Counted from the stretch's first letter, positions 23,412-41,819 are shown. The stretch is DNA of 64,000 nt from Verrucomicrobiia bacterium (GCA_035577805.1 DATLUX010000516.1:4841-68840), one strand, 5' to 3'. Notes: generated from the letters alone by a model not told the origin. Translations and numbers: made by a program.

Positions 23412-23873
23412 ATGGAACTCGTTCTTTTCATTGGCATTCCCGCCACCGGCAAAGCGCGTTTCTACCGGGAACGCCTTTTTCGCACGCATGTCCGCGTGAG
23501 CTTCGACATGCTCAAGAGCAAGAATCGCGAACAGCTGCTGGTCAGCGCCTGCCTGAACGGCGAGACGGCGTTCGTGGTGGACCATACCAACCTCACGCGC
23601 GAGGAACGCGCTCGTTACATCAACCCGGCGCGCACCGCCCGCTTTGCCGTGCACGGCTATTTCTTTCAATCCAATGTGTCGGAGGCCCTGGCGCGTAACG
23701 CCAGTCGTGAAGTCAGTGAGCGCATCTCCGAGTTTGCGATTCGCGGCGCCCGCGGCCGACTGGAAATGCCTTCTCTGAATGAGGGGTTTAATCGCCTCCA
23801 CTTCGTCCGTCTTGATGCCCGCGACCAATTTGTCGTGGAACCCTGGAAGGAGGATCACTCGTTGGCCAACTGA
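23412..23873 (+). CDS. Small P-loop kinase (polynucleotide-kinase / AAA_33-like)
   Basis: 153 aa. The Walker A-like motif is GIPATGKA. The layout is PNK-kinase-like (..VVDHTNLTREER.., ..P...EGFNRLHFV). Its last 19 nt overlap the 3' end of the convergent gspF-like gene. Confidence 0.6.
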   Translation: MELVLFIGIPATGKARFYRERLFRTHVRVSFDMLKSKNREQLLVSACLNGETAFVVDHTNLTREERARYINPARTARFAVHGYFFQSNVSEALARNASREVSERISEFAIRGARGRLEMPSLNEGFNRLHFVRLDARDQFVVEPWKEDHSLAN

Positions 23874-25174
23874 CTTTGGCCCTCGCTGTCCGGGTCGCCG
23901 AAGCCATCGATGATAGAGATGAGGGGCAGGAAAAGGGCGATGACAATGCTGCCCGCCACCAGGGCTAGGATCACGATCATAATCGGTTCCAGCAGCGACG
24001 TCATGCTCGCGACCGCATTGTCGACCTCCTCTTCGTAGGTATCGGCAATCTTCAGCAACATCTCCGGCAAGGCGCCCGTCTGCTCGCCGACGTCGACCAT
24101 GCCGACCACCATGGGCGGAAACACGCCGGAGGCAGCGAGGGGCGCGGTGATCGTTTCACCGTCCTTGACGCCCTCGTGCACCTGGCTGACCGCGGAGGCA
24201 ACGACCAGGTTTCCGGCGGTTTCTTTCACGATCGTGAGCGCCTGCAGGATGGGAACCCCACTGTGGACCAGCGTGCCCAGGGTCCGGCTGAACCGGGAGA
24301 TGGCAACCTGGCTGATCACATTACCCAGAATGGGCAGACTGAGTTTGATCCGATCAATCAGGCGCCGGCCGAAGCGGGTGCGGGCGAACCAAAGAAACCC
24401 CACGACTCCCAACGCCAGGGTCAATGAGGTGGCGAGCAGGTGGTGGGCTATGCTCGAGCTGAGATCAAACACGAACTCCGTGAAGGCCGGCAGCCCCCTT
24501 TTGGGAGCCAAGTCCTTGAAGATTTCCTTGAACCTGGGCACGACCCAAATGATCAGCACCGCCAGGATGATCACCGCCACCACCAGCACGGCGCACGGAT
24601 AGAACATGGCGGCGCGGACTTTGCTCCTGATCTTCTGGGCTTTTTCCATGAACTCGGCGATGCGCGCCAACACGACTTCGAGAATCCCGCCGATCTCGCC
24701 GGCTTTGACCATGTTGAGGTAAAGATGATTGAACACCTTGGGATGCTGGGCGAGCGCCTCGGTCAAGGTGCCTCCACCCTCGATGGTGCCCCCGATCTCG
24801 CCGATGATCCGTTTGAGGGCAGGATGTCGCTGTTGCGTTTCCAGCAGACGCAATCCGCGCAAGAGCGGCATGCCGGCATCAACCAGCGTGGCGAGTTGAC
24901 GCGTAAACGACGCGAGGATTTTCGCATTCACTCGGTCGCTCACACCCGGGATATGAATGGAGGTACGAAACAGGCCTTTGGTCCTGCCGGCCCGGCGCGC
25001 CCGACGGTGTGGGCGGGCGCCGGCGTTTCGAGGCTTGTCGGCGGCGGCAACTTTGGTCGGAAAGACCCCGAGTGCCTTGAGGCGCATCAACGCTTCGCTT
25101 TGGCTCGCTACTTCCATGACGCCCGCCGTTTCTCTTCCACGGGAGTCCAGGGCTACATACTTGAAGCTTGGCAT
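23855..25174 (-). CDS. gspF: Type II secretion / type IV pilus platform protein, GspF/PilC family
   Basis: Characteristic N-terminus MPSFKYVALDSRGRETAGVMEVASQSEALMRLKALGVFP. Two GspF repeats (..LATLVDAGMPLLRGL.., ..LGTLVHSGVPILQAL..) and three TM segments. ATG 25174 was chosen over the ORF opening at 25291. Confidence 0.85.
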   Translation of the reverse strand: MPSFKYVALDSRGRETAGVMEVASQSEALMRLKALGVFPTKVAAADKPRNAGARPHRRARRAGRTKGLFRTSIHIPGVSDRVNAKILASFTRQLATLVDAGMPLLRGLRLLETQQRHPALKRIIGEIGGTIEGGGTLTEALAQHPKVFNHLYLNMVKAGEIGGILEVVLARIAEFMEKAQKIRSKVRAAMFYPCAVLVVAVIILAVLIIWVVPRFKEIFKDLAPKRGLPAFTEFVFDLSSSIAHHLLATSLTLALGVVGFLWFARTRFGRRLIDRIKLSLPILGNVISQVAISRFSRTLGTLVHSGVPILQALTIVKETAGNLVVASAVSQVHEGVKDGETITAPLAASGVFPPMVVGMVDVGEQTGALPEMLLKIADTYEEEVDNAVASMTSLLEPIMIVILALVAGSIVIALFLPLISIIDGFGDPDSEGQSQLANE

Positions 25175-25518
25175 AATTCGAATGGCTCGCTTCCGGCGCC
25201 AATGTTTGGCAGTCGGGGATAGCGAGGTCCCGCCGGCCCCTGCGGAGGTGCGACATCGTTCAGACCTCGATACATCAGCCGCCCGGAGCAAGACCGGCGG
25301 AGGTCGCTGGTGGGTTTAGATGGCGCCGGAGCGCACTCCTCACGCGGCGCGCGCGCTATTCTTCAACCGGCGCGCGTTGCGGCCTTCTCCTTACTTCAAT
25401 GCCTGCTAATGACCCGTTTGGAACTGTGCGAAGAAACCGTGTTGATCGAAGGGAAAATGTTGCACGAGCGCGATCGCAAGGACGTGTTCCTTTGGATCGA
25501 TTTGGCAGTCCGGAAGGT

Positions 25519-26403
25519 CTACTTCGGCTGGGAACGGTGGGGACGAAACTGGCTGGACTCCTCGGTGGTCCGGTAGCGCAGGGAGCCGAACAGTTTCCGG
25601 GCCACGAACCAGAGCGTCTGTTTGGCGTTCACCCACACACCATCCGGCATGCGGATGCGGTCCAAGGTAATCTGGCAATGGTTGAGCGAACCCATCAGAC
25701 CGAGCCAGCCCATGGAAATGGCCTCACGCAGGCTCGCATCCAGGCGGGCTACTTCGTAGTCTTGTTCGTCGACCCAAACGGTCCCCGCCAGGCGGGTCAG
25801 CACCTTGTCTTGGATGCTGCCATCGGTGGCGGGCGCGGATTTCGGCGCGAAACTCAGGACCAGGGTGGAACGTCCGCGCACTGTTTCGCGTTTAAGGATC
25901 ACGAACTCAAAGCGGTCGACCAGCTCCTGGGTGACCCAACTCTGCCCTTGCTCGGCTTGGCGTCTGAGGTTCATCCGAGTCACCTTGTCGCGAAACTCCG
26001 TTTCGCGCCGGGTTTCGCGTTCGAGTTCCTTCTCGGCAAGCTCGCGGCCGCCGATTCTCACCAGCCGGGAAAACGGCAACCCACCGATCAGTTCGACGCT
26101 GTAATATTTCTCCGTGGATTTAACCGCCTGTCCGTTGCTATCCAGTTCTTCGACCAACGCGCGCTTGTCGTAGGAGTAGCGAGTAGCGTTTCCCGCCCGG
26201 GCTACCTGCTGGGCTCGTTCCACAATCCGCCGCGTGACATTGGTGGCCGCCGGCCAGTCCGCGGTGGCCCCGGATGCGTTCAGATCCGGCCCGGCCGCCG
26301 CGCTTAAGCAGAGTCCAACCAGAACTTTCAGACCGCCCGCTTTCACCGCGGGCTTGCGCACCACGGTTACCTCTGGCCTGTGTTGTCTGGATGTTGCGCT
26401 CAT
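25519..26403 (-). CDS. Hypothetical secreted protein (possible LolA-like beta fold)
   Basis: Signal peptide (..LKVLVGLCLSAAAG) followed by a charged coiled segment and a beta-rich C-terminal half (..GTVWVDEQDYEVARLDA..). I recognise no motif. An alternative GTG start lies at 26487. Confidence 0.5.
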   Translation of the reverse strand: MSATSRQHRPEVTVVRKPAVKAGGLKVLVGLCLSAAAGPDLNASGATADWPAATNVTRRIVERAQQVARAGNATRYSYDKRALVEELDSNGQAVKSTEKYYSVELIGGLPFSRLVRIGGRELAEKELERETRRETEFRDKVTRMNLRRQAEQGQSWVTQELVDRFEFVILKRETVRGRSTLVLSFAPKSAPATDGSIQDKVLTRLAGTVWVDEQDYEVARLDASLREAISMGWLGLMGSLNHCQITLDRIRMPDGVWVNAKQTLWFVARKLFGSLRYRTTEESSQFRPHRSQPK

Positions 26404-26670
26404 CAGTCTGCGTCTGGCCTTGGCTGTGGCTCTGTGGTCGTCATTGTCCTTGGTGCGCCTCAATCGGCTGTCTTGTGGCACAATCACTCAACCGCTAACA
26501 GGTGGCAAGCCAACGATGGGCCAAAACGAAAACAACGTGCGGACGCCGTGTTTATTGAGGTTTGCACATGCGCACCTCCCGGCCTGGCCCGGAAATGTGC
26601 AATGAGCAATGGGCTTAATGCACGTAACTGGCTAGGTTCATGGCGAGTTCCGGTTGGGCAAGTAAGCGAG

Positions 26671-27369
26671 TCACCAATATTCCCAGGCGCGCCGTTGCAG
26701 GACCCACAGGCCGAGCAGCAGGTTAGTGAGGCCGTGTGCGACGATGGCATCGCCCAGGCGTTTTTTCCAACAAACCAACCCTTGGTACGCGAATCCGCAG
26801 AGGATGCCAGCCAGCCAATGGCGATGTTCGAAGCCGAAGACCACCGATGTGACCAAGAACGGGATCCAAAACCAGGCGCCGATGGGTACCGATTGGAAAT
26901 CCACCCGGGCCACGTAACGATAAAAGAAGGATCGATAGAAGACCTCCTCCAATGGCGGGACGACACAAGCGGAGCCGACCAGGCGCACGACGATGAAAAG
27001 CCAGGCGAACGCCGACCCCTGGCCAAAGGTGGCATGCGGGTTCCAGTCTGCGCCTGAGCCGGAAAGATTCGGCTTTGGGTATGAATGCGGAAAGCCGAGC
27101 TGCACCAAAAGAGGGTCCAGGCCCACCCAAAGAACGAACACAGCCGTCCCGACCACCAACGCTTCCCAGCTGAACACCCATTTCATCTCAGGGACCACGC
27201 CGCGAACCGCCCAAAGCATCCAGGCCGCCAGCAATGTCTTGGCGAGATACAGCCAATACGGTCCCGTCCGGCCAACGTAGCCTTGGGCAAACGTCACCAG
27301 GATGAAGACGACAAAAGGCGCGACGCGCGCCAGCAAGGGAGAGGAGGTGAGTTTGGAGAGCAGATTCAT
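26671..27369 (-). CDS. CPBP-family intramembrane glutamic endopeptidase (CAAX protease-related)
   Basis: 232 aa polytopic membrane protein with CPBP motifs ..PPLEEVFYRSF.. (EExxxR), ..FGFEHRHW.. (FxxxH) and ..IVAHGLTN.. (HxxxN/D). Confidence 0.8.
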   Translation of the reverse strand: MNLLSKLTSSPLLARVAPFVVFILVTFAQGYVGRTGPYWLYLAKTLLAAWMLWAVRGVVPEMKWVFSWEALVVGTAVFVLWVGLDPLLVQLGFPHSYPKPNLSGSGADWNPHATFGQGSAFAWLFIVVRLVGSACVVPPLEEVFYRSFFYRYVARVDFQSVPIGAWFWIPFLVTSVVFGFEHRHWLAGILCGFAYQGLVCWKKRLGDAIVAHGLTNLLLGLWVLQRRAWEYW

Positions 27370-27491
27370 GGACCGCCAGCCCCGGATCGTGTGCGGCTCG
27401 CGCTCGGAAGCGCGCCGCGCGTTCCGGGTGCCGGCGGGTCTACCCGGGAGCTGAACTCAGCGCAAGAACAACCGCAGTGAACGCGGGCTAA

Positions 27492-27578
27492 GAGGCAGGG
27501 CCTCAGACCTGCAAGGCAAGGACGGTTCTTTGCAAGATCGAACGGCTTGGAGGCCTTGCCGCTCTGAGGCCCTGCCTC
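27492..27578. repeat. Long hairpin / REP-like palindrome between the gspB-like and CPBP genes
   Basis: Perfect 16-nt arms gaggcagggcctcaga (27492-27507) and tctgaggccctgcctc (27563-27578), plus an inner 7-bp pairing ggcaagg/ccttgcc. No T-run follows on either strand. Confidence 0.8.
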
Positions 27579-27763
27579 GTTAGTTGCGCCTGCACCTGAC
27601 GACGCGCAGGTGACTTCGCAAGGTGCTCGCGACTCCCTCGCTCCTTAATGGGGTTTAATGGGGAGAGGGCGCAGGTGGGAAGCGGGACAAGATGTTCGGT
27701 TCCCAAAGAAAGGACAACAGATCCAGCGTCCCCCAACCACGCACCGGCGTGCGCGGCTTGCTT

Positions 27764-28306
27764 TTACCTCATCGTCAGGACCTTGCTTTGTCCGTCGACG
27801 ATGAGAGTCACGCTATCGCGCGTGATGGCTTTGACCTTGCCGCTGCCGACGGTGTCACCGATGTAAACGGTCTGGGAATTAACCACAGCGGAGGGGCGGT
27901 TAAGTCGGAAGAAGATCCCTTGCAGCCGAAAGGCTTCTTCGGTCGGGGCGGGTGTTTCTTCGACCACGAACCGACGGTTTTCAGGCGCGGCTGCGGGCGG
28001 CTCGGTTGCGGTGGTTGCCTGGGCAGCGACCACGGGGACGGGGGTCGGGGTGGCGTGGGGGATTTCCCTGGCCTGGATGTTCACGGGTTGAGGGTAGAGG
28101 AGGGCCTGGCGCCGGTGGTCCCAGCCTTTCACGATGAAAAAGCAAGCACCCGTGATCACAAACAGCAACACAGGCATGAAATAGGTCGGCAATCCGACCG
28201 AACCGTGGGACTCGGCCGCACGCATGGAGACGTCGAGATTGGTGCCGTCGGGCTTGGGAGCCCGGGCTTGGGTAGCGCGCTTGAGGGCGTCGTTGATCAA
28301 GCTCAT
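27764..28306 (-). CDS. GspB/ExeB-like bitopic membrane protein
   Basis: 180 aa. GspB-type N-terminus MSLINDALKRA, a single TM (YFMPVLLFVITGACFFIV), a Pro/Thr/Ala-rich linker, and a C-terminal beta domain (..VVNSQTVYIGDTVGSGKVKAITRDSVTLIVDGQ..). Its start overlaps the stop of the ExeA-like gene by 4 nt. Confidence 0.6.
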   Translation of the reverse strand: MSLINDALKRATQARAPKPDGTNLDVSMRAAESHGSVGLPTYFMPVLLFVITGACFFIVKGWDHRRQALLYPQPVNIQAREIPHATPTPVPVVAAQATTATEPPAAAPENRRFVVEETPAPTEEAFRLQGIFFRLNRPSAVVNSQTVYIGDTVGSGKVKAITRDSVTLIVDGQSKVLTMR

Positions 28307-29118
28307 AAGTCGATTTTCCCTTCCAACTCGCGGATGGCACGCCCGACCAAGCTGTAGTCGATGCTGCCGCGTTGCTGAACGAACCCAGCCAACAGGGATT
28401 TGTCGCAGACGGCATTGACCAGCCGCGGTATACCGTGGCTATAGCAATAAACCCGCCATAGTGCCGGAGCGGTGAATTGAGGGCGCCCCTTGGCGCCCGA
28501 GATGGACAGGCGATGCTGCACGTACTGGCGTATTTCAGCGCGTTTTAAGGGCCTTAGATGGTAGCGGACGGTAATTCGCTGGCGGAGTTGGCGCAGGGCT
28601 GGGTCGTTTAGCCGGTCTCTCAATTCGGGTTGTCCCATCAACACAATCTGGAGCAGCTTCCGATCATCTGTCTCCAAATTGGACAGGAGCCGGACCTGTT
28701 CGAGCAGGTCGTTGGTCAGGTCCTGGGCTTCGTCGATGACCAGGACGGACTCCCGTCCTGCCTCCACCTGATGGAGGAGGAAGAGGTTAATCTCTTCGAG
28801 GATTTCCAGGCGGTCCAAGCCCCGGGCGTCCAGGCCGAACTCGGTGGCGATAGCCCGCATCAACTGGTCGGCGCTCAGCACGGGATTCAAGATCAGGGCC
28901 GTAGAGCAATTATTGCCCAGTAGACCGAGCAGCGCCCGGCAAAGTGTGCTTTTCCCCGCGCCGACTTCACCGGTAATCTGGACGAACCCTTTGCGGGCCC
29001 GAATGCCGTAGAGCATGTGGTTCAGCGCTTCCCGATGCTTGGCGCCGTAATAAAGGAAGCGCGGATTGGGAGTGATGCTGAAGGGGTCTTCGCTCAGGCC
29101 GTAGTATTCCAAGTACAC
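28303..29118 (-). CDS. ExeA/GspA/MshM-like AAA ATPase (AAA_22 type)
   Basis: Hallmark N-terminus YLEYYGLSEDPFSITPNPRFLY. Walker A GEVGAGKST and Walker B LVIDEAQDL. About 271 aa, so it lacks the C-terminal peptidoglycan-binding domain of full-length ExeA. GTG 29118 was chosen; the ORF opens at 29205. Confidence 0.8.
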   Translation of the reverse strand: MYLEYYGLSEDPFSITPNPRFLYYGAKHREALNHMLYGIRARKGFVQITGEVGAGKSTLCRALLGLLGNNCSTALILNPVLSADQLMRAIATEFGLDARGLDRLEILEEINLFLLHQVEAGRESVLVIDEAQDLTNDLLEQVRLLSNLETDDRKLLQIVLMGQPELRDRLNDPALRQLRQRITVRYHLRPLKRAEIRQYVQHRLSISGAKGRPQFTAPALWRVYCYSHGIPRLVNAVCDKSLLAGFVQQRGSIDYSLVGRAIRELEGKIDL

Positions 29119-29310
29119 GCCCGGCCCTAAGCATAGTCTTTGCCGTTCCACCCTGCACCAGTAACGGGCGTCACGCCAGCTCAGCTGCAACGAAATCCAA
29201 ACCAACCTCGCCCTCCTGGCTTTGGCCTCTGTGGGTAATCCAACGGAAAGGACGCATTTTCGACCACTTCACGGCTTGTCCAGTGGTCAACCTCTGTTAC
29301 CTTCAGGGCT

Positions 29311-30327
29311 GTGTCAGACGTAGCGAGTCATGACCGAAAACCTCTGCGCTTGGCCATATGCGGTTCTTGCAAAAAGAAGCATTGGCTTTCCAGCGATTTG
29401 CCCCCCTTGGAACAGATCAACTGCAGCCAATGCGGGCATCCGGTCATCGTCCCGACCGTGATCCGGAACTTCGAAGTGCGCGAAGTCGTCGCCTCCGGAG
29501 GGATGGGCACCGTTTATCGGGCCTTCGATTCCAAGTTGGAACGGATGGTGGCGATTAAGATGCTCAAGCGCGAGATGGTCGAGGACAAGCAGGTCATGGA
29601 AAGCTTTTATCGCGAAGCCCGCGCCACCGCTGCCCTCAACCACACCAGCATCATTCACGTGTATTCCTTCGACGAACACGCGGGCAGCCCCTACATCGTC
29701 ATGGAACTGGCCGATCACGGCAGCCTCGACAGCTGGATTATTCGCGACGGCGTCGTGCCGGAACTCAATGTTCTCGATATCGGGATCAAAGTAGCCTCCG
29801 CCCTGGAGAGCGCTCTGCAACGCAACTTGCTCCATCGCGATATCAAACCCGGCAATATCCTCTTCAACGAATATGGCGAACCCAAGCTGGTGGACTTTGG
29901 ACTCGCCCGCCAGGCCGAGCAGAACGAGGAATATGAAGCCGCCGTCTGGGGCACCCCATATTATGTCGCTCCGGAAAAAATCCAGCGGCAGGGCGAGGAT
30001 TTTCACTCGGATATGTACAGCCTGGGCGGCACCCTCTACCATGCGTTAACCGGGCACGTCCCGTTCGAAGCTGAGACAGTGGAACAGGTCGTCGCCGGCC
30101 ACGTGCATACCCCATTGACGCCCCCCTGTGATGTCCGGGTCGAGATCAGTCAACTCACCAGCGACGCCATCACGACAGCCATGGCCAAGGAGCCCACTCA
30201 ACGGTTCGCCAGCTATAGCGAGTTCCAGATGGCGCTCGAAAATGCGCGCAGCCATTACCTGGTTGACATCCACAAACATCAGGGCGATGACCGCAAGAAC
30301 CAGGGCCGCTCCTGGTGGCGCCGGTAG
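29311..30327 (+). CDS. Ser/Thr protein kinase with N-terminal Cys4 zinc-ribbon
   Basis: Hanks kinase motifs GGMGTVYRA, VAIKMLK, HRDIKPGNIL, DFGLA, APE. The N-terminal CGSC-x17-CSQC pair forms the ribbon. No TM or other sensor domain. GTG start at 29311 (alternative TTG 29350). Confidence 0.85.
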   Translation: MSDVASHDRKPLRLAICGSCKKKHWLSSDLPPLEQINCSQCGHPVIVPTVIRNFEVREVVASGGMGTVYRAFDSKLERMVAIKMLKREMVEDKQVMESFYREARATAALNHTSIIHVYSFDEHAGSPYIVMELADHGSLDSWIIRDGVVPELNVLDIGIKVASALESALQRNLLHRDIKPGNILFNEYGEPKLVDFGLARQAEQNEEYEAAVWGTPYYVAPEKIQRQGEDFHSDMYSLGGTLYHALTGHVPFEAETVEQVVAGHVHTPLTPPCDVRVEISQLTSDAITTAMAKEPTQRFASYSEFQMALENARSHYLVDIHKHQGDDRKNQGRSWWRR

Positions 30328-30486: not shown

Positions 30487-31683
30487 ATGTCTGCGATCGA
30501 ACGCACCGTGACCGTCCAGTTCCAGCATCGGGTGCATTTCACCAAGAATGTATTCGGGCTGGGCAATCCGTTGCTCAAACAGGTTTTGACCGGGGGCCGG
30601 GCGGTCGTTCCCAAGGTGCTGGTGGTGGTGGATGAATCGTTGCATCAGGCCCAGCCCGCGTTGGCGCATCAAATCGAGACTTGGTTCCGCAACCACGCCT
30701 CGTCCGTGAAGCTGGTGGCCCCGCCGCTGATTCTGGAAGGCGGCGAACGGGTGAAGAACTCCTACTTTCACGTTTCGGAGATTCAATCCCAGATCGACCG
30801 GTATCATATCGATCGCCATTCTTACGTGATCGCGATCGGAGGCGGGGCGCTGCTGGACCTGGTCGGACTGGCGGCGGCCACGGCGCATCGGGGCGTGCGG
30901 CATGTGCGCATCCCCACCACGACTCTTAGCCAGGACGATTCCGGGGTGGGGGTGAAGAATGGCATGAACGCGTTTGGGAAAAAGAATTTCATCGGCACCT
31001 TTGCCGTGCCGTGGGCGGTGGTCAATGACCACGAACTGCTGGCCTCCCTGTCGCCTAGAGACAAACGGGCCGGTTACATCGAAGCCGTCAAGGTCGCCTG
31101 CATTCGGGACCTGGCGTTTTTTGAAGAGATCGAACAAGCGGCGGTGAAGTTGCGCGAATTTGATCCCGACGCAATGCAGCGCCTGATCTATCGATGCGCG
31201 GAATTGCATGTCAATCACATCGCCACGTCCGGTGACCCGTTCGAGATGGGCTCGGCGCGTCCGCTGGATTTCGGGCATTGGGTGGCCCACAAACTCGAAC
31301 AGATCTCCGAATACAAGATTCGTCATGGCGAGGCGGTGGCGGTGGGCATCGCCGTGGATGTGATTTATTCGCGGCGGATGGGTTTTCTGGAAGCCCCGGC
31401 GGCTGAACGGATCCTCCGGTTAATCGAGGATTTGGGCTTCGAAATCTACGCCAACGAACTGCAGCATGTGGATTCCGCCGGATCGTTGGTCGTGCTGCAA
31501 GGGCTCGAGGAGTTTCGTGAACATCTGGGCGGAGAATTGACGATCACCTTGTTGCGCGGCATTGGGGACGGGTTCGAAGTGCACGAAATGCATGCCTCCA
31601 CCGTCGCGGCGTCCATCCACGAGTTGGAAGAGCGCGCCCAACGACGCGTGCAGGCTCGAGTGGTCGCCATGTTCAAACGCTGA
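30487..31683 (+). CDS. 3-dehydroquinate-synthase-like sugar phosphate cyclase (EboD-like)
   Basis: DHQS-superfamily core GGGALLDLVGLAAATAHRGVRHVRIPTTTLSQDDSGVGVKNGMNAFGKKNFIG, plus metal-binding His region (HGEAVAVG). 398 aa. Confidence 0.8.
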   Translation: MSAIERTVTVQFQHRVHFTKNVFGLGNPLLKQVLTGGRAVVPKVLVVVDESLHQAQPALAHQIETWFRNHASSVKLVAPPLILEGGERVKNSYFHVSEIQSQIDRYHIDRHSYVIAIGGGALLDLVGLAAATAHRGVRHVRIPTTTLSQDDSGVGVKNGMNAFGKKNFIGTFAVPWAVVNDHELLASLSPRDKRAGYIEAVKVACIRDLAFFEEIEQAAVKLREFDPDAMQRLIYRCAELHVNHIATSGDPFEMGSARPLDFGHWVAHKLEQISEYKIRHGEAVAVGIAVDVIYSRRMGFLEAPAAERILRLIEDLGFEIYANELQHVDSAGSLVVLQGLEEFREHLGGELTITLLRGIGDGFEVHEMHASTVAASIHELEERAQRRVQARVVAMFKR

Positions 31684-33110: not shown

Positions 33111-33399
33111 GGGGCAGAAAGATGGGGGCAGAAAAATGGCCTGGCAGCTGGACGCCACAAAATTAATAAGGCCCGTGCCGACAGTGCGTCCTGCGTGTCA
33201 TTTTTCTGCCAGTTATTTTTCTGCCCACAGTTCCTGCCCGGTCTGATCACTAGCGGCGGAACCAGGGGCAGAAAGATGGGGGCAGAAAGATGGCCTGGCA
33301 GCTGGACGCCACAAAATTAATAAGGCGCGTGCCCGACAGGTGCGTCCCTGCGTGGCGTCATTTTTCTGCCAGTTATTTTCCTGCCCACAGTTCCTGCCT
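33111..33399. repeat. Two tandem copies of a ~130-bp MITE-like element (family E, GGCAGAAA-rich termini)
   Basis: Unit 1 (33111-33239) and unit 2 (33265-33399) are near-identical, with a 154-nt period and a few indels. Each unit is bounded by inverted repeats ggggcagaaagatgggggcagaaaaatg / catttttctgccagttatttttctgccc. Confidence 0.9.
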
Positions 33400-33515
33400 G
33401 GTTGGCTGCTTTTCGGTTGAATCAGCTTGGGTGGCCACCCAAGCTTGGCGGGGTGAGCGGACAAGTCGGTGCGCACAACGGGGCGACCCGTGTCAGTGAC
33501 CTGGTGAAACGGATC

Positions 33516-34877
33516 ATGGGTTCAGCCGTGATTTGGTCCTGGGGCATGAATGCGATCCGATTGGGGTTCGGGTTGCTGGTATTGCCGCTCTTGGTTCTGT
33601 TGCTGCCGACTAAACAAGACCTGGGCTTCTATCAATTGCTGACCAACCTGGTGGTGGTCGTGCCGTTGCTGGATGTGGGGTTGTCGTTTGGGATCGAGCG
33701 GGGCCTGAGCTTTGCGATGGGGGGCGCGGCTGAACTCAAGCCGCATGGCGTTCATCTCGCGGTTGGGGGCGGACGCCCCAACGAGGCGCTTTTGTGGCGG
33801 ATTGTCCATGCGGCCAAGATGTATTACTCGGCGCTGGCCGCGGTGGGGTTTGTTGGGCTTGGGGCAGTCGGCTCGTGGCTGGTGGTGCGGAATGCGGATC
33901 AAACATCCAATCCCACCTTATGCTGGGTCAGCCTGGGCATCGCCGTGGCCAATGCCGGATTCGAGATCTACGCGGGCTGGTGGGCTGCGGTTCTGCGCGG
34001 AGTTAATGGGGTGCCGGCCAGCGCGCGCATCGGTTTTTTTGCCCATGGCCTCAAGCTGGTGCTTTCCTGCGTGCTGTTGTTGGCCGGAGCGGGGTTGGCG
34101 AGCGTCTTTGCGGCCGGATTCGTGTCGAGTTTCGTGCTGCGTTTCTTGTCGCGGCGAGCCGCGCTGAGGTTGCTTCCCCCTCCGCCGGAACGGAAGGCGA
34201 GTTGGCAGGAGATCGTGGGTGTGTTGCGAGTGCTTTGGCCGAACAGCTGGCGGGTGGGGTTGCAAGTGTTGAGCAGCTTTCTCACGACGCTGCTTTTGTC
34301 GGTGTTATGTACCGAGTTCCTGGATCTGGCCGATTACCAGGCTTATGGGTTGTCGATCCAGGTGGCCAACATCATTCAAGGGATTTCGGCCGTCTGGGTG
34401 ACCGTCAAATGGCCCTTGGTGGGACAATTGCGTGCCCGCCACGATCACGATGCGTTGCGGCGCCTGCTTCGTCCCCGGTTTTGGCTGCAGGCGGTCACTT
34501 TCGTGGTCGTCGCGGTGGTGGCAGGGACGCTCGGTCCTTATTTGTTGAGCCTGCTCCGCACCGATAAACAGCTGCTCCCGCACCCGTGGCTGACGCTCAT
34601 TCTCATCCAGGGGTTTATTGATCTGCAGGTCAGCTTCTGGACTTTCCTGTTGGCGACGGAAAACCGCGTGCCTTCCCTCTGGCCCATGGTCTGCACCTAC
34701 GCGGTGACCCTGCTCCTGACGATCATCTTGAGCGGAGCGACCACGCTCGGGGTGGGGGTATTTGCCCTAGCACCCTTTCTGGCCAGCGTGGCTTTCAACT
34801 TTTGGTACTGGCCTGTGGCCGGCGCGCGGAACCTTCGCACCAGTTGGTGGCGGTTTATCTTCGCGCGCGTCGCTTGA
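33516..34877 (+). CDS. Polytopic membrane protein, oligosaccharide flippase (MOP/Wzx)-like
   Basis: About 453 aa and highly hydrophobic, with roughly 12 or more predicted TM segments and a flippase-like N-terminus (..AIRLGFGLLVLPLLVLLLPTKQDLGFYQL..). The assignment rests on architecture only. The ORF opens at 33402 inside the repeat; ATG 33516 was chosen. Confidence 0.5.
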   Translation: MGSAVIWSWGMNAIRLGFGLLVLPLLVLLLPTKQDLGFYQLLTNLVVVVPLLDVGLSFGIERGLSFAMGGAAELKPHGVHLAVGGGRPNEALLWRIVHAAKMYYSALAAVGFVGLGAVGSWLVVRNADQTSNPTLCWVSLGIAVANAGFEIYAGWWAAVLRGVNGVPASARIGFFAHGLKLVLSCVLLLAGAGLASVFAAGFVSSFVLRFLSRRAALRLLPPPPERKASWQEIVGVLRVLWPNSWRVGLQVLSSFLTTLLLSVLCTEFLDLADYQAYGLSIQVANIIQGISAVWVTVKWPLVGQLRARHDHDALRRLLRPRFWLQAVTFVVVAVVAGTLGPYLLSLLRTDKQLLPHPWLTLILIQGFIDLQVSFWTFLLATENRVPSLWPMVCTYAVTLLLTIILSGATTLGVGVFALAPFLASVAFNFWYWPVAGARNLRTSWWRFIFARVA

Positions 34878-35979: not shown

Positions 35980-37128
35980 CTAACGAGGAGATTCCTGCAA
36001 CGCGCGCAGATATTCGCGATCCCAGGCGGCGGGGATGCTCTCGCGCGGGGAATAGGGCCCGGGCTGATAGGCGCGGGAAGCAATGCCTTGTTGGCTTAAC
36101 TCGCAGACACGCCAATCCTGTCGGTTGGTCATGTCCCAGAAAATGATGGCGTCATCCGGGCGGAAATCGTGCTGGCCGAAAGCCTCGGGATGAAACAGCC
36201 AATCGCAAACAATTCTCACGCGATCGGGAGCCTGCGGCCAGAGCTGATGGACCATGACATAATCCGGGTGCAGGCTGAGCAGCAGATTGGGGAAAATGGA
36301 GTAGTAGAAGATGCGATGTGGATCGGCATCGGTCTGGGCCTCCGGCCTCTCCCCGACCGGCCTGGCACAGGCCTGTCCGCTCATCGTCAAGCTGCGGCCT
36401 TTGCGGATCGGCATGGGCCCGCCCAGGAACGGCCCTTCAAAAAGATCGTTCTCGGCGGCGTCGGAAGGGCTTAACTTGGCCAGGGTGGGGTGGACCAGCG
36501 GGCAATGATAACACTCGGAATAATTCTGGCAGACCAGCTTCCAATTCGCGCGCACGTCGTATTCAATCCGCCGGGCGGAACGAAGTCTGGGCAGGTTCCA
36601 TTCCGTGAACTTGCCAGCCAAGGGCTCGAATGACTTCTGCAACGGCGTGGCTTGGTCAGACAGGTTTACGAAGAGGAGCCCTTCCCATATTCCCAGCGCT
36701 ACTGGGACCAGCGAATGCGCCGCCTTGTCGAATTCCGCAACCTCATCCATGTGCGGTGCGCCGGCCAAACGGCCGTCGAGCTGATAGGTCCAGGCGTGAT
36801 ACGGGCATTGAACCGTTTGGAAATGGCCGCGGGTCTGCTCGCACATCCGGGTGCCGCGGTGGCGGCAGACATTATAAAAAGCCCGCACCTCGTGGTGCTG
36901 ATCGCGCAGCACGATCAGGCTTTCGCCCGCCACGTCTTGCAGGAAATAATCCCCGGCATTGGGGAGCTGACTCTGATGGCCGACGCAGAGCCAGCGCCTG
37001 GAGAAGATCCGTTCCTGTTCCTGGGCAAATACCGACGGGGCCACGAAGTAGGGTTGCGCCAATGTCTTCGCGCCCGCGCGGAAGGTGTCCGCGGTTTTAC
37101 GAAAGTCCGGCTTCGAACTCGGGCGCAT
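35980..37128 (-). CDS. Rieske [2Fe-2S] non-heme-iron oxygenase, alpha subunit type
   Basis: Rieske motif CRHRGTRMC-x16-CPYHAW. Mononuclear iron motif region NYSECYHCPLVHP. 382 aa. No reductase or ferredoxin partner is adjacent. Confidence 0.85.
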   Translation of the reverse strand: MRPSSKPDFRKTADTFRAGAKTLAQPYFVAPSVFAQEQERIFSRRWLCVGHQSQLPNAGDYFLQDVAGESLIVLRDQHHEVRAFYNVCRHRGTRMCEQTRGHFQTVQCPYHAWTYQLDGRLAGAPHMDEVAEFDKAAHSLVPVALGIWEGLLFVNLSDQATPLQKSFEPLAGKFTEWNLPRLRSARRIEYDVRANWKLVCQNYSECYHCPLVHPTLAKLSPSDAAENDLFEGPFLGGPMPIRKGRSLTMSGQACARPVGERPEAQTDADPHRIFYYSIFPNLLLSLHPDYVMVHQLWPQAPDRVRIVCDWLFHPEAFGQHDFRPDDAIIFWDMTNRQDWRVCELSQQGIASRAYQPGPYSPRESIPAAWDREYLRALQESPR

Positions 37129-37265
37129 GGTTCAATGACAACACCGAAGTCAACCGTAGTGCGCGCGCGGAAACAAAGAGAAAATCCACTTTGTTCCAAT
37201 CCCAATCGGAGTATGCTTGCTCCGGTCCGCGGCGTTCATCGAACGCATGGACTGAAGTGTTCCGC

Positions 37266-40200
37266 ATGAAACGCATCACCCTCAGCCTGCTCCTGGGTTG
37301 GGTGCTGGCTCTGGGGGTGACGCCAGCGCGGGCGGCTGCCATCTCCTTGCCCGTCCCGATTTACCTCGAAAACTTCAATGCCGTGCCGGAAGGAAGTCTG
37401 CCGGCCGGCTGGACGCAGACCAATTATTCCACGCTCCCGGAGACTATTTTTGATCTGCAAGACCTGGCCTCCGCGTCGTATGCCGGGTGGGTGGTCGTTG
37501 ACCGCAGTCGTTTCACCTCGAACTTCCTGGCCTACTCGAGTCATACCCCGACCGATTATTCCCGGGTCCTCTCTTTCAACGCAGACAACGTTGTGAATGG
37601 GCAGGTGGTGACGAATCTGGCGGAGGGCCGCTTTCTCATGGCCAACTCGGGGTATCGCGAAGGCAGTCAGGTCCAATATTTATGGTCCGGTGATTTTGAT
37701 TTAACCGGCAAAACCAACATCCACCTGTCGTACCACAGCCTGTGGGAACAGAATCAGGATAACTTCGGCGCGGTCGAATACTCGGTGGACGGTGGCGCGA
37801 ACTGGCTGCCGATCGTTTACATGCTGGACACGCCCGACGTCATCACCAGCGGCGGTGTGGTTGATGCCATCCGGACTTTGACGAATCGTTATCCGGACGT
37901 CGCCACTTATGTGGATCCGGGTTCGGGAGCCGTGCAGGGAGGCTATTATGGCGCATTCATAGCCGCGCCCATCAGCCAGGCTTTAGCTCCCTTCATCAGC
38001 GCGCGCATCAATGACGACCCAGTTGAATCCAAACGAGTCGAGCTCTTTCGTTTGCCCGCCGCGGATAATCAGGCCACCGTCCGTTTCCGGTTTGCCCATG
38101 CCGGCACCGATAGCTGGTACTTCGGCATCGACGATTTCGGACTCTACAGCATTACGCCCACGGCGCCCGTCATCAGCGCCGCGCCGAAAAGCGTGAATGT
38201 CAGCGCAGGCGCATTCGCCACGTTCGAGGTGGCCGCCAGCGGTGAGCCACCATTGACCTTTCAGTGGCGGTTGAACGGAACGAACATTCCCGGAGCCACT
38301 AATGCGACACTGCCGGTGACCGCAGCTGCCGGCCCCAGCGCGGGCGCCTATACCGTGGTGGTCAGCAACGGTGCGGGCGCTGTTGAAAGTCCCGGCGCAA
38401 TTTTGACCGTGTATGTGCCAGCGGTCACAGGGCAATGGGATTTTGACGCCGGCGACCTGCGCGCCACGGCTGGTTCTGACGTCGAATCTCGCGATGGCAC
38501 GTTGCGTCCGGCGGCGTTTACCGAGCTGACCCTTGGCGGTCAACCGGCGCAGGTGCTGCATTTCGGCAGCAACGTGGTCGATCACGGCCTGCTCATGCGT
38601 CATGGAGCCCGTCCCAATGCCGGCGGGCGTTTGGTCAATCAATACACATTGCTCATGGATGTGATGTATCCGTCCGAGAGCAGCGGCCATTGGCGCGCCC
38701 TGTGGCAAACCGATCCGTTCAATCACTCCGGTAACGAAGCGGATTTTCTGGTGGGCGCCGCCGCCGCGTTGCCTGACCCGAATGGGATCGGCGCCAACCA
38801 TCAGTTCCACGCTTCGTTGGAGCCGAACCGTTGGTATCGAGTTGGCTTGGCCGTCGATCTGGCAGCTCCGCCCGCGCAACGGCTCACCACCTATCTCGAC
38901 GGCCTCAAGGTCGCCACCCAGGAACTTGAAGAAGGCGTGGACGGACGCTATGCGCTCGGCCCGACCGGGGTGCTGTTTGCTGGCGGCGACGGTTCCAGTC
39001 CAGCTGGCTTCGTCAACAGCATCCAATTCGTCAACGGTTGGTGGCCCGACACGGCCTTCGCGGCGTTGGGCGGACCGGTCGCAAGCGGTCTTCCGCCTGG
39101 CGACGCGGTGGTGCGCGTCTCCTCGCTGGAGCAGGCAACCGGCTCCCTCACCCTGCGCTGGTCTGGCGGCGGCGGACTGTTCCGGATCCAAAAGGCGAGC
39201 AGTCTGGCCTTGAGCGATTGGCAGGATGCCGGCATGCCGACCTCAAACCGGATCTTCACCGTGAGCCTGGATGGGGGCGGGGCTTTTTATCGTGTCAAAA
39301 GTGTGCCTCCTCCGTTGCGGGTTGGTCTGCAGCCTGGCGGAGAGAGCGCGTTGCCCACCGCGCAATTGATTCGAACCATCGGGGACTCGCTTCCGTTCAG
39401 CGGGCGTCCCGTGGATCTGGCAGCGGGACCGGGCGGGCAACGGCTCTACGTGAAAAGAAACGATGCGGTCGTGGTCATCGATGCCAAAGCTTGGAAGCTG
39501 GTTCAGCAGTTGGGATTCCCCGGCAGCGGCGCTTCGATGCACGGGATTACCGTCACCCGCGATGGAACTCGTCTTTATGTGACTGGAGCCGGCCAGGAAC
39601 TTTACGAGGCGACGATTGGCGCGACCAACGGCGCCTTGGTTTGGTCACGCACGGTAGGCATGCCTGGCAGTTCCTATCCGTGCGGCGTGGCTGTGTCGTC
39701 CGACCGAACCCGCGCTTACGTTTGTCTTTCGCGCCTCAACACCTTGGCGGTGGTGAATCTACCAACAGGCGCCGTGCTGCGCCAAATCAACGTGGGCATT
39801 GCGCCGTTTGATGTGGTGTTGTCTCCGGACGAAACCGTGGCTTACGTGTCGGACTGGGGCGGACGCCGTCCTGCGCCCGGCGAAACCACGGCTGATTCCG
39901 CCGGCACGCAGGTGGTGGTGGACGGGCGCGGGATCGGCGCCAGCGGCGCGGTATCAATCGTGGACCTAGTGCAGAATGTGCAGACCGCCTTGGTTCCAAC
40001 CGGATTGCATCCGGCCGATTTGGAGCTGAGTCCGGATGGCGGCACCCTCTACGTGGCAAACGCCAATTCCGACACGATCACGGTCATTGAGACCGCCACG
40101 GCGACGGTGCGCGAGACGATTTTGGTTCGGCCTGATGCCACGCTGCCCTTCGGCAGCGCCGCCAACGCCCTCGCGCTGACGACGGATGCCAAGACCTTGG

Positions 40201-41819
40201 TCGTGGCGAACGCCGGGAACAACGCCGTGGCACTGATCGAACTACCCAACGCCCAGCACGCCACCAGCGTGGTCCAAGGATTTATCCCCACCGACTGGTA
40301 TCCAGGCGCCGTGGTGGTCGATCGCGATTATATCTACGTGGCCAATGTGAAGGGTTTGGGAACACGCAATGGCGCTCCCAACACCACCGCTTGGGATGCC
40401 AACCGCGCTCTGGGCACCGTCAACCGGATTCCATTCCCAGGCGCCGAACTCTTAAGCAAATACACCGCCTGGGTCCACGAAGATGGACGTGTGCCCGAAA
40501 TGCTGCGCGCTCTGGAGCGGGTGAACGGCCCCGCCCCGCCGGTGCCCGTGCCGGCACGCCCCGGAGAGCCCTCCGTTTTCCAGCATGTTGTTTATGTCAT
40601 CAAAGAAAACAAAACCTATGACCAGGTGCTTGGGGATCTTCCACAAGGCAACGGCGCCTCTAACCTCTGTGTCTTCCCACGCTTCGTCACTCCTAATCAC
40701 CACGCGCTGGCGGAGCGTTACGTTCTGCTGGACAACTTTTACTGCAACGGGGTGAACTCGGCGGATGGGCATTCCTGGTCGACCGAAGGCAATGTCACCG
40801 ACCATCTGGAAAAGGCGTTTGGCGGATTCAGCCGGAGTTACACGTTTGGCGATGATGCGCTGACCTACTCTTCCTCGGGATTCATCTGGGACAACGTCCT
40901 TTCCCACGGCCTTTCGTTCCGTAATTACGGCGAGATGGATTACGCGTCGCCCATTCCAGCCAGTGCGTCGTGGCTGACCATTTATCGGGACTTCACCAAC
41001 CGCACGGGCCAGATTCGCTATGCCCAGAACATCGGGATTGCGCCGCTTCGTCCCTACAGTTCGACCAACGTCCCGGGTTGGAACCTTGGCATTCCGGATG
41101 TGGTGCGGGCCGCGGCCTTCATCAAGGAGTTGAAGGCGGCCGAGTCGGATGGATTCTGGGCCAGCTTTCACATTCTGTATCTGCCCAATGATCATACGAT
41201 CGGAACATCGCCTGGTTATCCCACGCCGCGGGCGCAAGTCGCCGACAATGATCTGGCCTTGGGCCAGGCTGTCGCAGCCATCACCCAAAGCCGTTTCGGC
41301 AGCAATACGTGCATCTTTGTGATCGAGGACGATCCTCAGAGCGGTTATGACCATGTGGATGGGCATCGGTCTCTTTGTCTGGTCATCAGCCCGTACACCA
41401 AACGTGGCAGTGTGATCAGCGAGTTCTACAATCAAACCGCCGTGCTTCACACCATGGAACGCATCCTGGGCCTGCCGCCCATGAACCAACTCGATGCGCT
41501 CGCTCCTCTCATGGCTGAATGTTTCACTTCCCTCGCCAATTTCGAGCCCTACACCGCTTTGACCAATAACGTGCGTCTCGACGAAATGAATGGCGGCAGC
41601 GCCTCGCTCTCGCGGAAAGAACAATATTGGGTCAAGCAAAGCCTGAAACTGAACTTTAGCTTGCCTGACCGCGCCAACGAAGATGTGCTCAATCGCATTG
41701 TCTGGCATTCCGTGAAAGGCGTGGATGCCAAGTATCCCGCGCGCTGGGCCGGCGCTCACGGCAAAGGCCTCAAGAAACTCGGGCTCGTCCTCACCGGCGA
41801 ACGCGATGCGGACGATTAA
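37266..41819 (+). CDS. Giant secreted multidomain protein: MAM/'choice-of-anchor'-like + Ig-like + LamG-like + beta-propeller (YncE-like) + phosphoesterase (PLC/AcpA family)
   Basis: Signal peptide MKRITLSLLLGWVLALGVTPARA at ATG 37266. Ig-like module (..LTFQWRLNGTNIPGATNATL..YTVVVSNGAG..). LamG-like module (..NQYTLLMDVMYP..NRWYRVGLAVD..). Repeated ..DG..LYV.. propeller blades (LSPDETVAYVSD, LSPDGGTLYVANANSDTITVIE). C-terminal phosphoesterase motifs HVVYVIKENKTYDQVLGDL, NSADGHSWSTEG, LPNDHT, VIEDDPQSGYDHVDGHRS. Confidence 0.8.
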   Translation: MKRITLSLLLGWVLALGVTPARAAAISLPVPIYLENFNAVPEGSLPAGWTQTNYSTLPETIFDLQDLASASYAGWVVVDRSRFTSNFLAYSSHTPTDYSRVLSFNADNVVNGQVVTNLAEGRFLMANSGYREGSQVQYLWSGDFDLTGKTNIHLSYHSLWEQNQDNFGAVEYSVDGGANWLPIVYMLDTPDVITSGGVVDAIRTLTNRYPDVATYVDPGSGAVQGGYYGAFIAAPISQALAPFISARINDDPVESKRVELFRLPAADNQATVRFRFAHAGTDSWYFGIDDFGLYSITPTAPVISAAPKSVNVSAGAFATFEVAASGEPPLTFQWRLNGTNIPGATNATLPVTAAAGPSAGAYTVVVSNGAGAVESPGAILTVYVPAVTGQWDFDAGDLRATAGSDVESRDGTLRPAAFTELTLGGQPAQVLHFGSNVVDHGLLMRHGARPNAGGRLVNQYTLLMDVMYPSESSGHWRALWQTDPFNHSGNEADFLVGAAAALPDPNGIGANHQFHASLEPNRWYRVGLAVDLAAPPAQRLTTYLDGLKVATQELEEGVDGRYALGPTGVLFAGGDGSSPAGFVNSIQFVNGWWPDTAFAALGGPVASGLPPGDAVVRVSSLEQATGSLTLRWSGGGGLFRIQKASSLALSDWQDAGMPTSNRIFTVSLDGGGAFYRVKSVPPPLRVGLQPGGESALPTAQLIRTIGDSLPFSGRPVDLAAGPGGQRLYVKRNDAVVVIDAKAWKLVQQLGFPGSGASMHGITVTRDGTRLYVTGAGQELYEATIGATNGALVWSRTVGMPGSSYPCGVAVSSDRTRAYVCLSRLNTLAVVNLPTGAVLRQINVGIAPFDVVLSPDETVAYVSDWGGRRPAPGETTADSAGTQVVVDGRGIGASGAVSIVDLVQNVQTALVPTGLHPADLELSPDGGTLYVANANSDTITVIETATATVRETILVRPDATLPFGSAANALALTTDAKTLVVANAGNNAVALIELPNAQHATSVVQGFIPTDWYPGAVVVDRDYIYVANVKGLGTRNGAPNTTAWDANRALGTVNRIPFPGAELLSKYTAWVHEDGRVPEMLRALERVNGPAPPVPVPARPGEPSVFQHVVYVIKENKTYDQVLGDLPQGNGASNLCVFPRFVTPNHHALAERYVLLDNFYCNGVNSADGHSWSTEGNVTDHLEKAFGGFSRSYTFGDDALTYSSSGFIWDNVLSHGLSFRNYGEMDYASPIPASASWLTIYRDFTNRTGQIRYAQNIGIAPLRPYSSTNVPGWNLGIPDVVRAAAFIKELKAAESDGFWASFHILYLPNDHTIGTSPGYPTPRAQVADNDLALGQAVAAITQSRFGSNTCIFVIEDDPQSGYDHVDGHRSLCLVISPYTKRGSVISEFYNQTAVLHTMERILGLPPMNQLDALAPLMAECFTSLANFEPYTALTNNVRLDEMNGGSASLSRKEQYWVKQSLKLNFSLPDRANEDVLNRIVWHSVKGVDAKYPARWAGAHGKGLKKLGLVLTGERDADD

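Follow-up and report, generated by a model that had tools for sequence, protein, structure and literature searches.

We have analysed a stretch of 64,000 nucleotides (nt), hereafter the window, from the metagenome-assembled genome (MAG) of a soil Verrucomicrobiae (Verrucomicrobiia bacterium, GCA_035577805.1 DATLUX010000516.1:4841-68840), in which three successive minus-strand genes encode a short ExeA-type ATPase, a GspB-like bitopic partner and a CPBP-family intramembrane protease. The ATPase and its partner form a translationally coupled unit that is built like GspA/GspB and is widespread outside Proteobacteria, and in Verrucomicrobiota a CPBP protease of the TIGR03008 subfamily, with catalytic motifs that appear intact in the sequence, is joined to this pair. 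The trio is not part of an exosortase or exopolysaccharide (EPS) locus. We suggest that it is a stand-alone conserved verrucomicrobial envelope module, consisting of a GspA/GspB-like secretin-interface pair and a recruited PEP-CTERM-type protease, and not the remnant of an exosortase locus; taken as a whole we believe this about as strongly as we doubt it. That the pair works like GspA/GspB seems to us very probable, and we lean towards a functional link between the protease and the ATPase. The literature we searched gave no description of the trio, and nothing specific on the gene order of TIGR03015 and TIGR03008 members.

The arrangement of the pair and of the trio recurs in dozens of independent genomes, far beyond what chance would give. 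Related loci were sampled with one genome per species, which gave 80 loci, each with at most 10 kb on either side and mostly on MAG contigs, and their open reading frames (ORFs) were compared by BLAST and clustering. It should be noted that genes in the fetched loci were called by a simple ORF picker, which in some cases took a spurious ORF on the opposite strand in place of the adaptor; the counts of presence are therefore minimum values. MAG titles are used as deposited, and L042, L008 and L011, titled 'Klebsiella sp.' (e.g. L042) or 'Akkermansia muciniphila', are probably mislabelled lake or environmental bins. The ATPase-partner pair is the conserved core and was found in Verrucomicrobiota, Thermoanaerobaculia/Acidobacteriota, Kiritimatiellae, Lentisphaerota, Planctomycetia and Omnitrophota; the 4 nt overlap between the two genes is present in the window and in 36 of the 54 pairs called elsewhere. 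As to the trio, conservation of the gene order in relatives, which had been proposed as a check, turned out to be strong: CPBP is the third gene in 35 of the 40 verrucomicrobial loci with enough downstream sequence (one large clade), and the order is kept where CPBP is only 40% identical (contigs L170-172). Two loci (L046, 2846-4398, and L043, 9971-11629) have no partner gene and carry CPBP directly after the ATPase, with the CPBP gene of L046 overlapping the ATPase stop by 4 nt (ATGA), an arrangement that argues for a direct relationship between ATPase and CPBP. The flanks of the related loci hold housekeeping genes (hisD, hisC, an RluA/SAM-methyltransferase fusion, a TolC-like gene, trigger factor and ExbBD). 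The trio had been described as a possible fragment of a larger module, and is found instead as a stand-alone unit among these genes.

The ORF of the ATPase continues to a TTG at 29205, and we place the start at the GTG at 29118 because the homologues are 271 amino acids (aa) long and begin M-Y-L-E-x-Y-G-L. The earlier note was right in describing a product of about 271 aa with Walker motifs and no peptidoglycan-binding domain: Walker A (GEVGAGKS) lies at residues 50-57 and DEAQ at 129, AAA_22 (93.8 bits) is the single Pfam domain, and neither PF01471 nor any transmembrane (TM) or hydrophobic segment was detected; it is a soluble, cytoplasmic protein. The P-loop GxxGxGK[ST] together with a DEAQ box belongs to the description of TIGR03015; both are common to the whole ExeA family and so do not discriminate. 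More than 7900 homologues were found, the closest being 75-91% identical and, where the source is named, from Verrucomicrobiota/Verrucomicrobiales. Identity by BLAST is 46.1% to ExeA of Aeromonas (A. caviae) over residues 1-270, 44.6% to GspA of Ideonella and 44.5% to the ATPase of the D. vulgaris pDV region discussed below, the three being about equally close to it. PDB sequences gave P-loop noise alone, and automated annotation names the protein 'AAA family ATPase' or 'general secretion pathway protein A'.

When 63 homologues of the partner were aligned, four parts emerged: MSLINDALKRA, invariant at the N-terminus, then a TM helix, a Pro/Ala linker that varies, and ~55 conserved aa at the C-terminus; the N-terminal motif is conserved across phyla. 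From the same alignment AlphaFold2 (AF2) predicted residues 3-11 as a helix and 42-69 as a TM helix; after a disordered linker comes a beta domain of six strands (127-177), for which pLDDT is > 90. When the C-terminal domain was compared with PDB by Foldseek, the top five matches were all secretin-N0-binding HR domains, namely GspC HR (3OSS_C, TM-score on target 0.76, 29% identity), OutB/GspB (4WFW, rmsd 1.5 Å), PulC HR (6HCG, as 6HCG_e), PilP (2LC4) and LspC (7OIO), in this order. The annotated GspB of Ideonella has the identical four-part layout, with the N-terminus MSYILDALRRADAER, and its C-terminal domain aligns with that of the partner in hhalign (E = 2.5e-5); the gspA-gspB order in Ideonella is also that of the ATPase and partner genes in the window. 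Searching PDB sequences with the partner profile gave nothing at E ≤ 10. Most homologues of the partner are annotated 'hypothetical', and two carry the JGI label 'MshK'.

The HR domain of GspB is reported to bind the secretin's N0 domain, and gspB usually lies next to gspA; an archetype (Alteromonas-type) with a short GspA that has no periplasmic region and is paired with GspB has also been described (PMC9239104). ExeAB is needed to assemble the secretin ExeD (PMC4098917). From the HR fold, the GspB architecture and this literature we conclude that the anatomy of the pair is that of a short GspA with GspB (or of MshM with MshK), despite the sequence-model thresholds that were not reached. The likeness to GspA/GspB (ExeA/ExeB) thus comprises an ExeA-family ATPase domain with 44-46% identity, the coupling of its gene to that of the next, bitopic partner, and in this partner an MS-x-I-x-DAL-[KR]-[KR]-A N-terminus, TM helix, Pro/Ala linker and HR/T2SSB C-terminal domain. 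Unlike the Vibrio/Aeromonas archetype of GspA, the ATPase of the window lacks a TM segment, a cysteine-peptidase-like region and PF01471. The pair also differs from GspA/GspB in lying outside a gsp operon, in having CPBP attached as a third gene, and in its occurrence in the Planctomycetes-Verrucomicrobia-Chlamydiae (PVC) group, Acidobacteriota and Omnitrophota and not in gamma- or betaproteobacteria. Pairs of GspA/GspB type, described as gamma-/betaproteobacterial, hence now extend to these lineages.

A short ExeA-like ATPase without periplasmic domain and a small HR/PilP-like partner are also found as MshM and MshK of the MSHA pilus, and in Kiritimatiellae and Lentisphaerota (L074, L075 and L079) the pair lies inside a partial cluster resembling a type II secretion system (T2SS) or the MSHA system. 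The order of this cluster is TPR protein, ATPase, HR partner, MshEN protein, second ExeA-like ATPase, GspE/MshE-like protein (MshEN and T2SSE), GspF/MshG-like protein, sigma-54 response regulator and pseudopilin, with a second GspE copy replacing the second ExeA-like ATPase in Kiritimatiellae L074. The window differs from MshM/MshK in that it has no msh operon and holds an orphan GspF/PilC gene only.

The third protein passes the TIGR03008 model over its full length with 147.9 bits (cutoff 81.05), the canonical pDV member giving 318 bits as a control, and is matched in Pfam as Rce1-like with 38 bits. The CPBP motifs EExxxR, FxxxH and HxxxN/D are intact, as EEVFYR at 141, FGFEH at 178 and HGLTN at 212, and NCBI names an identical protein 'CAAX prenyl protease-related protein'. 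A search of 50%-identity cluster representatives returned many relatives of ~490-570 aa with 30-39% identity. All six of these that were tested pass TIGR04162 (exosortase E/protease), their CPBP domains scoring 132-158 bits on TIGR03008, and such exosortase E/protease (XrtE) fusions are the nearest non-verrucomicrobial relatives of the CPBP in the window. The tie of this CPBP subfamily to exosortases is therefore real at the family level; EpsH-CAAX fusions were noted by Haft et al. 2006 (PMC1569441). Since the CPBP model is passed and the gene order is conserved, the idea of the earlier note, that the genes belong to an exosortase/EPS-associated or secretin-assembly module, is not refuted. Unlike the fusions, the window protein has no exosortase domain. 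It is possible, though we think it doubtful, that its substrates are C-terminally anchored surface proteins of PEP-CTERM type.

Several observations weigh against the envelope module suggested here. On sequence models the partner fell short, with 16.8 bits against a threshold of 28.4 for T2SSB (PF16537), 18.2 bits for T2SSC and no match at E ≤ 0.01 to NF037978 (threshold 100 bits), and no MshM- or MshK-specific model matched; of the GspB and MshM assignments proposed earlier, GspB-like therefore stands by HR fold and architecture and not by these models. As a control, the annotated GspB of Ideonella itself reaches only 51.2 bits on NF037978. The Foldseek E-values (4e-3 to 0.2) are modest because the HR domain is small, and the top matches are mutually consistent. 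No GspE/PilB, pseudopilin or secretin gene was found across the window, and no secretin gene is adjacent to the pair in any locus examined. Genes of T2SS or type IV pili adjoin the pair in 4 lineages only among ~80 loci. In addition, the pair occurs without CPBP in some verrucomicrobial loci (L017, L039, L044 and L049-L062), and CPBP followed by the RluA/methyltransferase gene occurs without the pair in L167 and L173.

If the pair and the protease do act together, we picture the following. The ATPase would dock onto the cytoplasmic MSLINDALKRA peptide of the adaptor, and its ATP-dependent oligomerisation would position the adaptor's HR domain, which could then bind N0 of a PilQ- or GspD-like secretin encoded elsewhere. 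In this manner the pair may aid secretin assembly or its tethering to the inner membrane, like ExeAB/GspAB and OutB. CPBP, which we place in the same membrane complex because of the tight spacing and the ATPase-CPBP coupling of L046, would clip a membrane-anchored segment of client proteins, and the clipped clients might be released to, or passed through, the outer-membrane secretin route.

A different possibility is that the trio is a detached accessory of PEP-CTERM/exosortase systems, acting in trans in post-cleavage processing or in energising export, with no secretin involved. The two models concerned, TIGR03008 and TIGR03015, whose TIGRFAM descriptions refer to PEP-CTERM loci, had led to the proposal that CPBP and ATPase are both markers of such loci. 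For CPBP a tie holds at the level of the family, its subfamily being fused to exosortases in XrtE, with the gene here standing apart from the setting that defines TIGR03008 as far as the 64 kb show. For the ATPase the proposal is weak: TIGR03015 is its best NCBIfam match, and the score of 307.2 bits lies under the curated cutoff of 324.5. As controls, the XrtA-locus ATPase of D. vulgaris pDV gave 427.7 bits, the annotated GspA of Ideonella, which has a GspB neighbour, 282.6 bits, and an EPS-type short ATPase of Roseobacter 197.9 bits, so that the window protein is nearer in score to GspA than to the XrtA ATPase. Ten members of the ATPase clade from six or more phyla score 298-320 bits whatever their context, copies beside GspE/GspF included, and an E-value equivalent to the cutoff is reached by only 1 of 47 clade members. 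A near-threshold score on TIGR03015 therefore reflects general ExeA-family similarity and not an exosortase context, and should not be counted as evidence of an exosortase system.

The D. vulgaris pDV region is a canonical XrtA/PEP-CTERM super-locus that carries both families, which speaks for an exosortase accessory. Its TIGR03015 ATPase, set among EPS genes, is however 439 aa long with a low-complexity coiled-coil tail, and is followed by a TIGR03016 outer-membrane protein (both in L179 14001-16819) with no HR partner, and its TIGR03008 CPBP lies ~23 kb away beside PEP-CTERM genes. In the window the ATPase and CPBP genes belong to the same cluster, CPBP scores 148 against 318 bits, and no exosortase or EPS gene of this kind is nearby; the likeness to pDV is one of superfamily or subfamily. 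In Roseobacter litoralis pRLO149_63 (L181 8118-10414) a short ExeA-like ATPase overlaps a chain-length determinant by 4 nt, and a tyrosine kinase is present as well. An XrtA or EPS locus would be recognised by an exosortase, chain-length determinant, tyrosine kinase or TIGR03016 protein next to the ATPase; no exosortase domain was detected, and the neighbours in the related loci are instead hisD, hisC, the RluA/methyltransferase gene, trigger factor and a TolC-like gene. The downstream partner, be it TIGR03016, a chain-length determinant or an HR adaptor, may be the best guide to the envelope machine that an ExeA-like ATPase serves.

To search for exosortases directly we built a hidden Markov model (HMM) from 30 XrtE fusion N-termini, representing one exosortase subfamily only. 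It gave no match at E ≤ 1 in the window or in the 80 related ±10-kb loci (L001-L086, ~1.2 Mb), and as a positive control it matched the fusion ORFs among 80 metagenomic loci with up to 386 bits. Of the ORFs in the window with several TM segments, those with any match resemble a Wzx-like flippase and the rest match nothing, and a regular expression for PEP-CTERM tails found none in the window. These results agree with the earlier statement that no exosortase, secretin or PEP-CTERM substrate is visible in the 64 kb. Two PEP-CTERM-like tails were detected in the related loci, in L046 and L047, and the tailed ORF of L046 lies three genes upstream of the ATPase, a point in favour of an exosortase accessory and also of the PEP-CTERM link in our own reading, as is the richness of Verrucomicrobia in PEP-CTERM proteins. 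Conversely, if the pair served exosortases it might be expected beside the exosortase-CPBP fusions; this was rejected, as the 80 fusion loci (655 kb) contained no ExeA-like ATPase and no GspB-like gene. A role as exosortase accessory would also leave the HR domain unexplained. Weighing the control scores, the clade-wide 298-320 bits and the XrtA ATPase without GspB-like partner, we regard the ATPase as a weak exosortase marker, and an accessory acting in trans as unlikely, though worth keeping in mind. For the pair the secretin-assembly half of the original proposal is better supported, by the HR fold, the GspB architecture and the T2SS/MSHA-type neighbours.

Combining the two ideas, we speculate that the trio might form the outer-membrane leg of PEP-CTERM sorting in Verrucomicrobiota, with CPBP trimming or releasing clients of exosortases, or others anchored by the C-terminus, at the inner membrane and the ATPase and HR adaptor handing them to, or building, a secretin pore; this is a long shot. 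MYXO-CTERM cargo depends on T2SS for its arrival at the surface. By analogy, both GlyGly-CTERM/rhombosortase and MYXO-CTERM/myxosortase cargo, being T2SS-dependent, would be parallels, and a precedent for C-terminal sorting proteases coupled to T2SS export exists. Myxosortases (MrtX, MrtP and MrtJ) are, like the CPBP discussed here, CPBP-family glutamic intramembrane proteases; their models match CPBP relatives weakly (27-31 bits), with no match reported for the CPBP of the window. They have been proposed to process C-terminal sorting signals, and GlyGly-CTERM/rhombosortase cargo needs T2SS to reach the surface (bioRxiv 10.1101/2023.06.07.544157). V. spinosum has 65 PEP-CTERM proteins and two EpsH genes (PMC1569441), and Akkermansia has 23 PEP-CTERM proteins together with an EpsH-like gene and a PilQ secretin of very high abundance (PMC4960237). 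Verrucomicrobia, Akkermansia included, are among the richest carriers of PEP-CTERM proteins, and the compact operon offers a genetically tractable hypothesis on PEP-CTERM export. Should an outer-membrane leg of this kind prove true, the long-unexplained TIGR03015 and TIGR03008 families would be assigned a role, and ExeA-like ATPases would act directly with intramembrane proteases, as the coupling in L046 suggests.

It could also be that the pair is of GspA/GspB type and that CPBP stands beside it by inherited gene order only, with an unrelated housekeeping role, in which case the finding would shrink to an ordinary GspA/GspB-like pair. The RluA-type pseudouridine synthase/SAM-methyltransferase fusion gene very often lies directly after CPBP on the same strand, and this adjacency is kept both with and without the pair, so part of the CPBP adjacency could therefore be inherited. 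One of the loci without the pair (L173) has two GspE genes, a PilT-like gene and GspF 3-8 kb from CPBP. The housekeeping flanks (hisD, hisC, trigger factor, TolC-like) are in line with mere gene order, as are the 394-nt spacer with its strong hairpin that parts CPBP from the pair in the window, and the pairs without CPBP in five other phyla and a second verrucomicrobial clade. However, most loci have very short or overlapping spacers, the trio is kept down to 40% CPBP identity, the ATPase and CPBP genes overlap by 4 nt in L046 where the adaptor is lost, and the two families co-occur independently in the canonical PEP-CTERM region of pDV. We therefore consider mere gene order rather improbable.

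EPS export of the Wzx/Wzy-PCP type, which short ExeA-like ATPases serve in EPS loci of proteobacteria, with the partner as a divergent co-polymerase-like adaptor, would agree with the 4-nt-coupled ATPase, chain-length determinant and tyrosine kinase of Roseobacter, with the EPS genes around the D. vulgaris ATPase, and with a Wzx-like flippase and a sugar dehydratase gene that lie 4-6 kb away in the window. We judge it very improbable all the same: the partner has an HR and not a PCP/Wzz fold, the sugar genes close by lie on the opposite strand and lack conservation in related loci, and the Roseobacter-type ATPase is far more distant (198 bits on TIGR03015, 37% identity). CPBP domains were historically called Abi, and defence islands often contain pairs of an ATPase and a membrane protein; a module of 'Abi'-type CPBP and P-loop ATPase acting against phages or in abortive infection is hardly credible here and was dropped, as PADLOC gave no defence-system match, with weak generic P-loop matches for the ATPase (≤ 21.8 bits) and nothing for the other three proteins, and the neighbourhood is a housekeeping one, stably syntenic over deep divergence, unlike a defence island.

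The features of the locus are collected in the table below. A six-frame ORF listing placed the ATPase, the partner with its 4 nt overlap, the gap, CPBP and the ORF that follows it where the earlier note had put them; the GspF/PilC gene further downstream was not mentioned there.

Positions of the trio and adjoining features in the window, and of the gene following CPBP in related loci
Feature	Position	Strand	Remarks
Short ExeA/GspA/MshM-type P-loop ATPase	28303..29118	-	271 aa, GTG start
GspB/MshK-like bitopic inner-membrane adaptor	27764..28306	-	180 aa, ATG overlaps ATPase stop by 4 nt
Intergenic spacer, one long hairpin	27370..27763	-	394 nt
CPBP (Rce1-like) glutamic intramembrane protease, TIGR03008 subfamily	26671..27369	-	232 aa
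Lineage-specific ORF with hydrophobic N-terminal segment	25519..26403	-	outside conserved module
GspF/PilC-type inner-membrane platform protein	23855..25171	-	context, outside conserved trio
RluA/methyltransferase gene after CPBP	L009 12304-13947; L170 8076-9656; L167 8702-10303; L173 9795-11351

The spacer between the pair and CPBP had been described as filled with repeats, and contains instead a single inverted repeat with 26-nt arms (27492-27517 and 27553-27578, 92% complementary). The minus strand of the 131-nt stretch 27470-27600 has a minimum free energy (MFE) of -69.4 kcal/mol (z = -6.0). The hairpin is near-perfect. Its sequence has no second copy in the window, which speaks against a dispersed repeat on this scale, and no Rfam family matches it; probably it is either a palindromic element that was inserted here or the stem-loop of an RNA. 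The corresponding spacer measures ≤ 70 nt in 22 of 25 related loci, against 394 nt here, and the atypical length is due to the hairpin stretch. A small stem-loop ending in a T-rich tail comes after the hairpin. In L008 (5787-6006) the same intergenic position is taken by an unrelated hairpin whose stem has ~30 bp, which suggests either that palindromic elements favour this site for insertion or that an RNA stem is selected for here. Across the whole window no Rfam family and no tRNA was detected, and a scan of 25200..29400 returned 0 promoters and 7 terminator-like sites, not above the shuffled expectation of 4.6 ± 3.0.

In the window the position of the RluA/methyltransferase gene is taken by the lineage-specific ORF, which adjoins CPBP on same-species contigs only. 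Where this ORF starts is uncertain, as a length of 281 aa is given by metagenome gene callers. The product has an N-terminal hydrophobic segment and no match in Pfam (even at E ≤ 10), NCBIfam or PADLOC, and a single-sequence AF2 model was unusable (pLDDT 37.4, pTM 0.24). The GspF/PilC gene is the second gene downstream of CPBP on the same strand and is adjacent to the trio in the window's species only; its product scores 214 bits on T2SSF in Pfam, and 381 and 379 bits on GspF (TIGR02120) and PilC, both under the equivalog cutoffs. The gene is an orphan, at its 3' end it shares ~19 nt with a kinase-like gene of AAA_33 type (23412..23873) that is convergent to it, and a regular expression for prepilin N-termini found none in the window. 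Upstream of the ATPase, a serine/threonine kinase gene (29311..30327) was considered as a member of the module and rejected, as it is adjacent on same-species contigs only and has weak paralogue-level matches elsewhere.

One to three genes from the pair the window also carries a 3-dehydroquinate-synthase-like gene (30487-31683, plus strand), and such a gene is found at the same distance in a Planctomycetia MAG (L080 7953-9044) and an Omnitrophota MAG (L082 6351-7535), in both cases with thioesterase-like and PilZ-domain genes alongside. Either coincidence or a weakly conserved linkage may lie behind this. Further upstream, at 33111-33425, a unit of ~155 nt is tandemly duplicated, its sub-blocks being 97% and 81% identical; the duplication is intergenic and directly upstream of the Wzx-like flippase gene (33402..34877), reaching into its start. 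Finally, a 1729-aa ORF at 36630-41819 on the plus strand contains domains of Ig-like, beta-propeller and phosphoesterase type. In the listed form this ORF shares ~500 nt with the 5' part of a Rieske oxygenase gene placed convergently to it (35980-37128, minus strand), and its true start is therefore probably further downstream.

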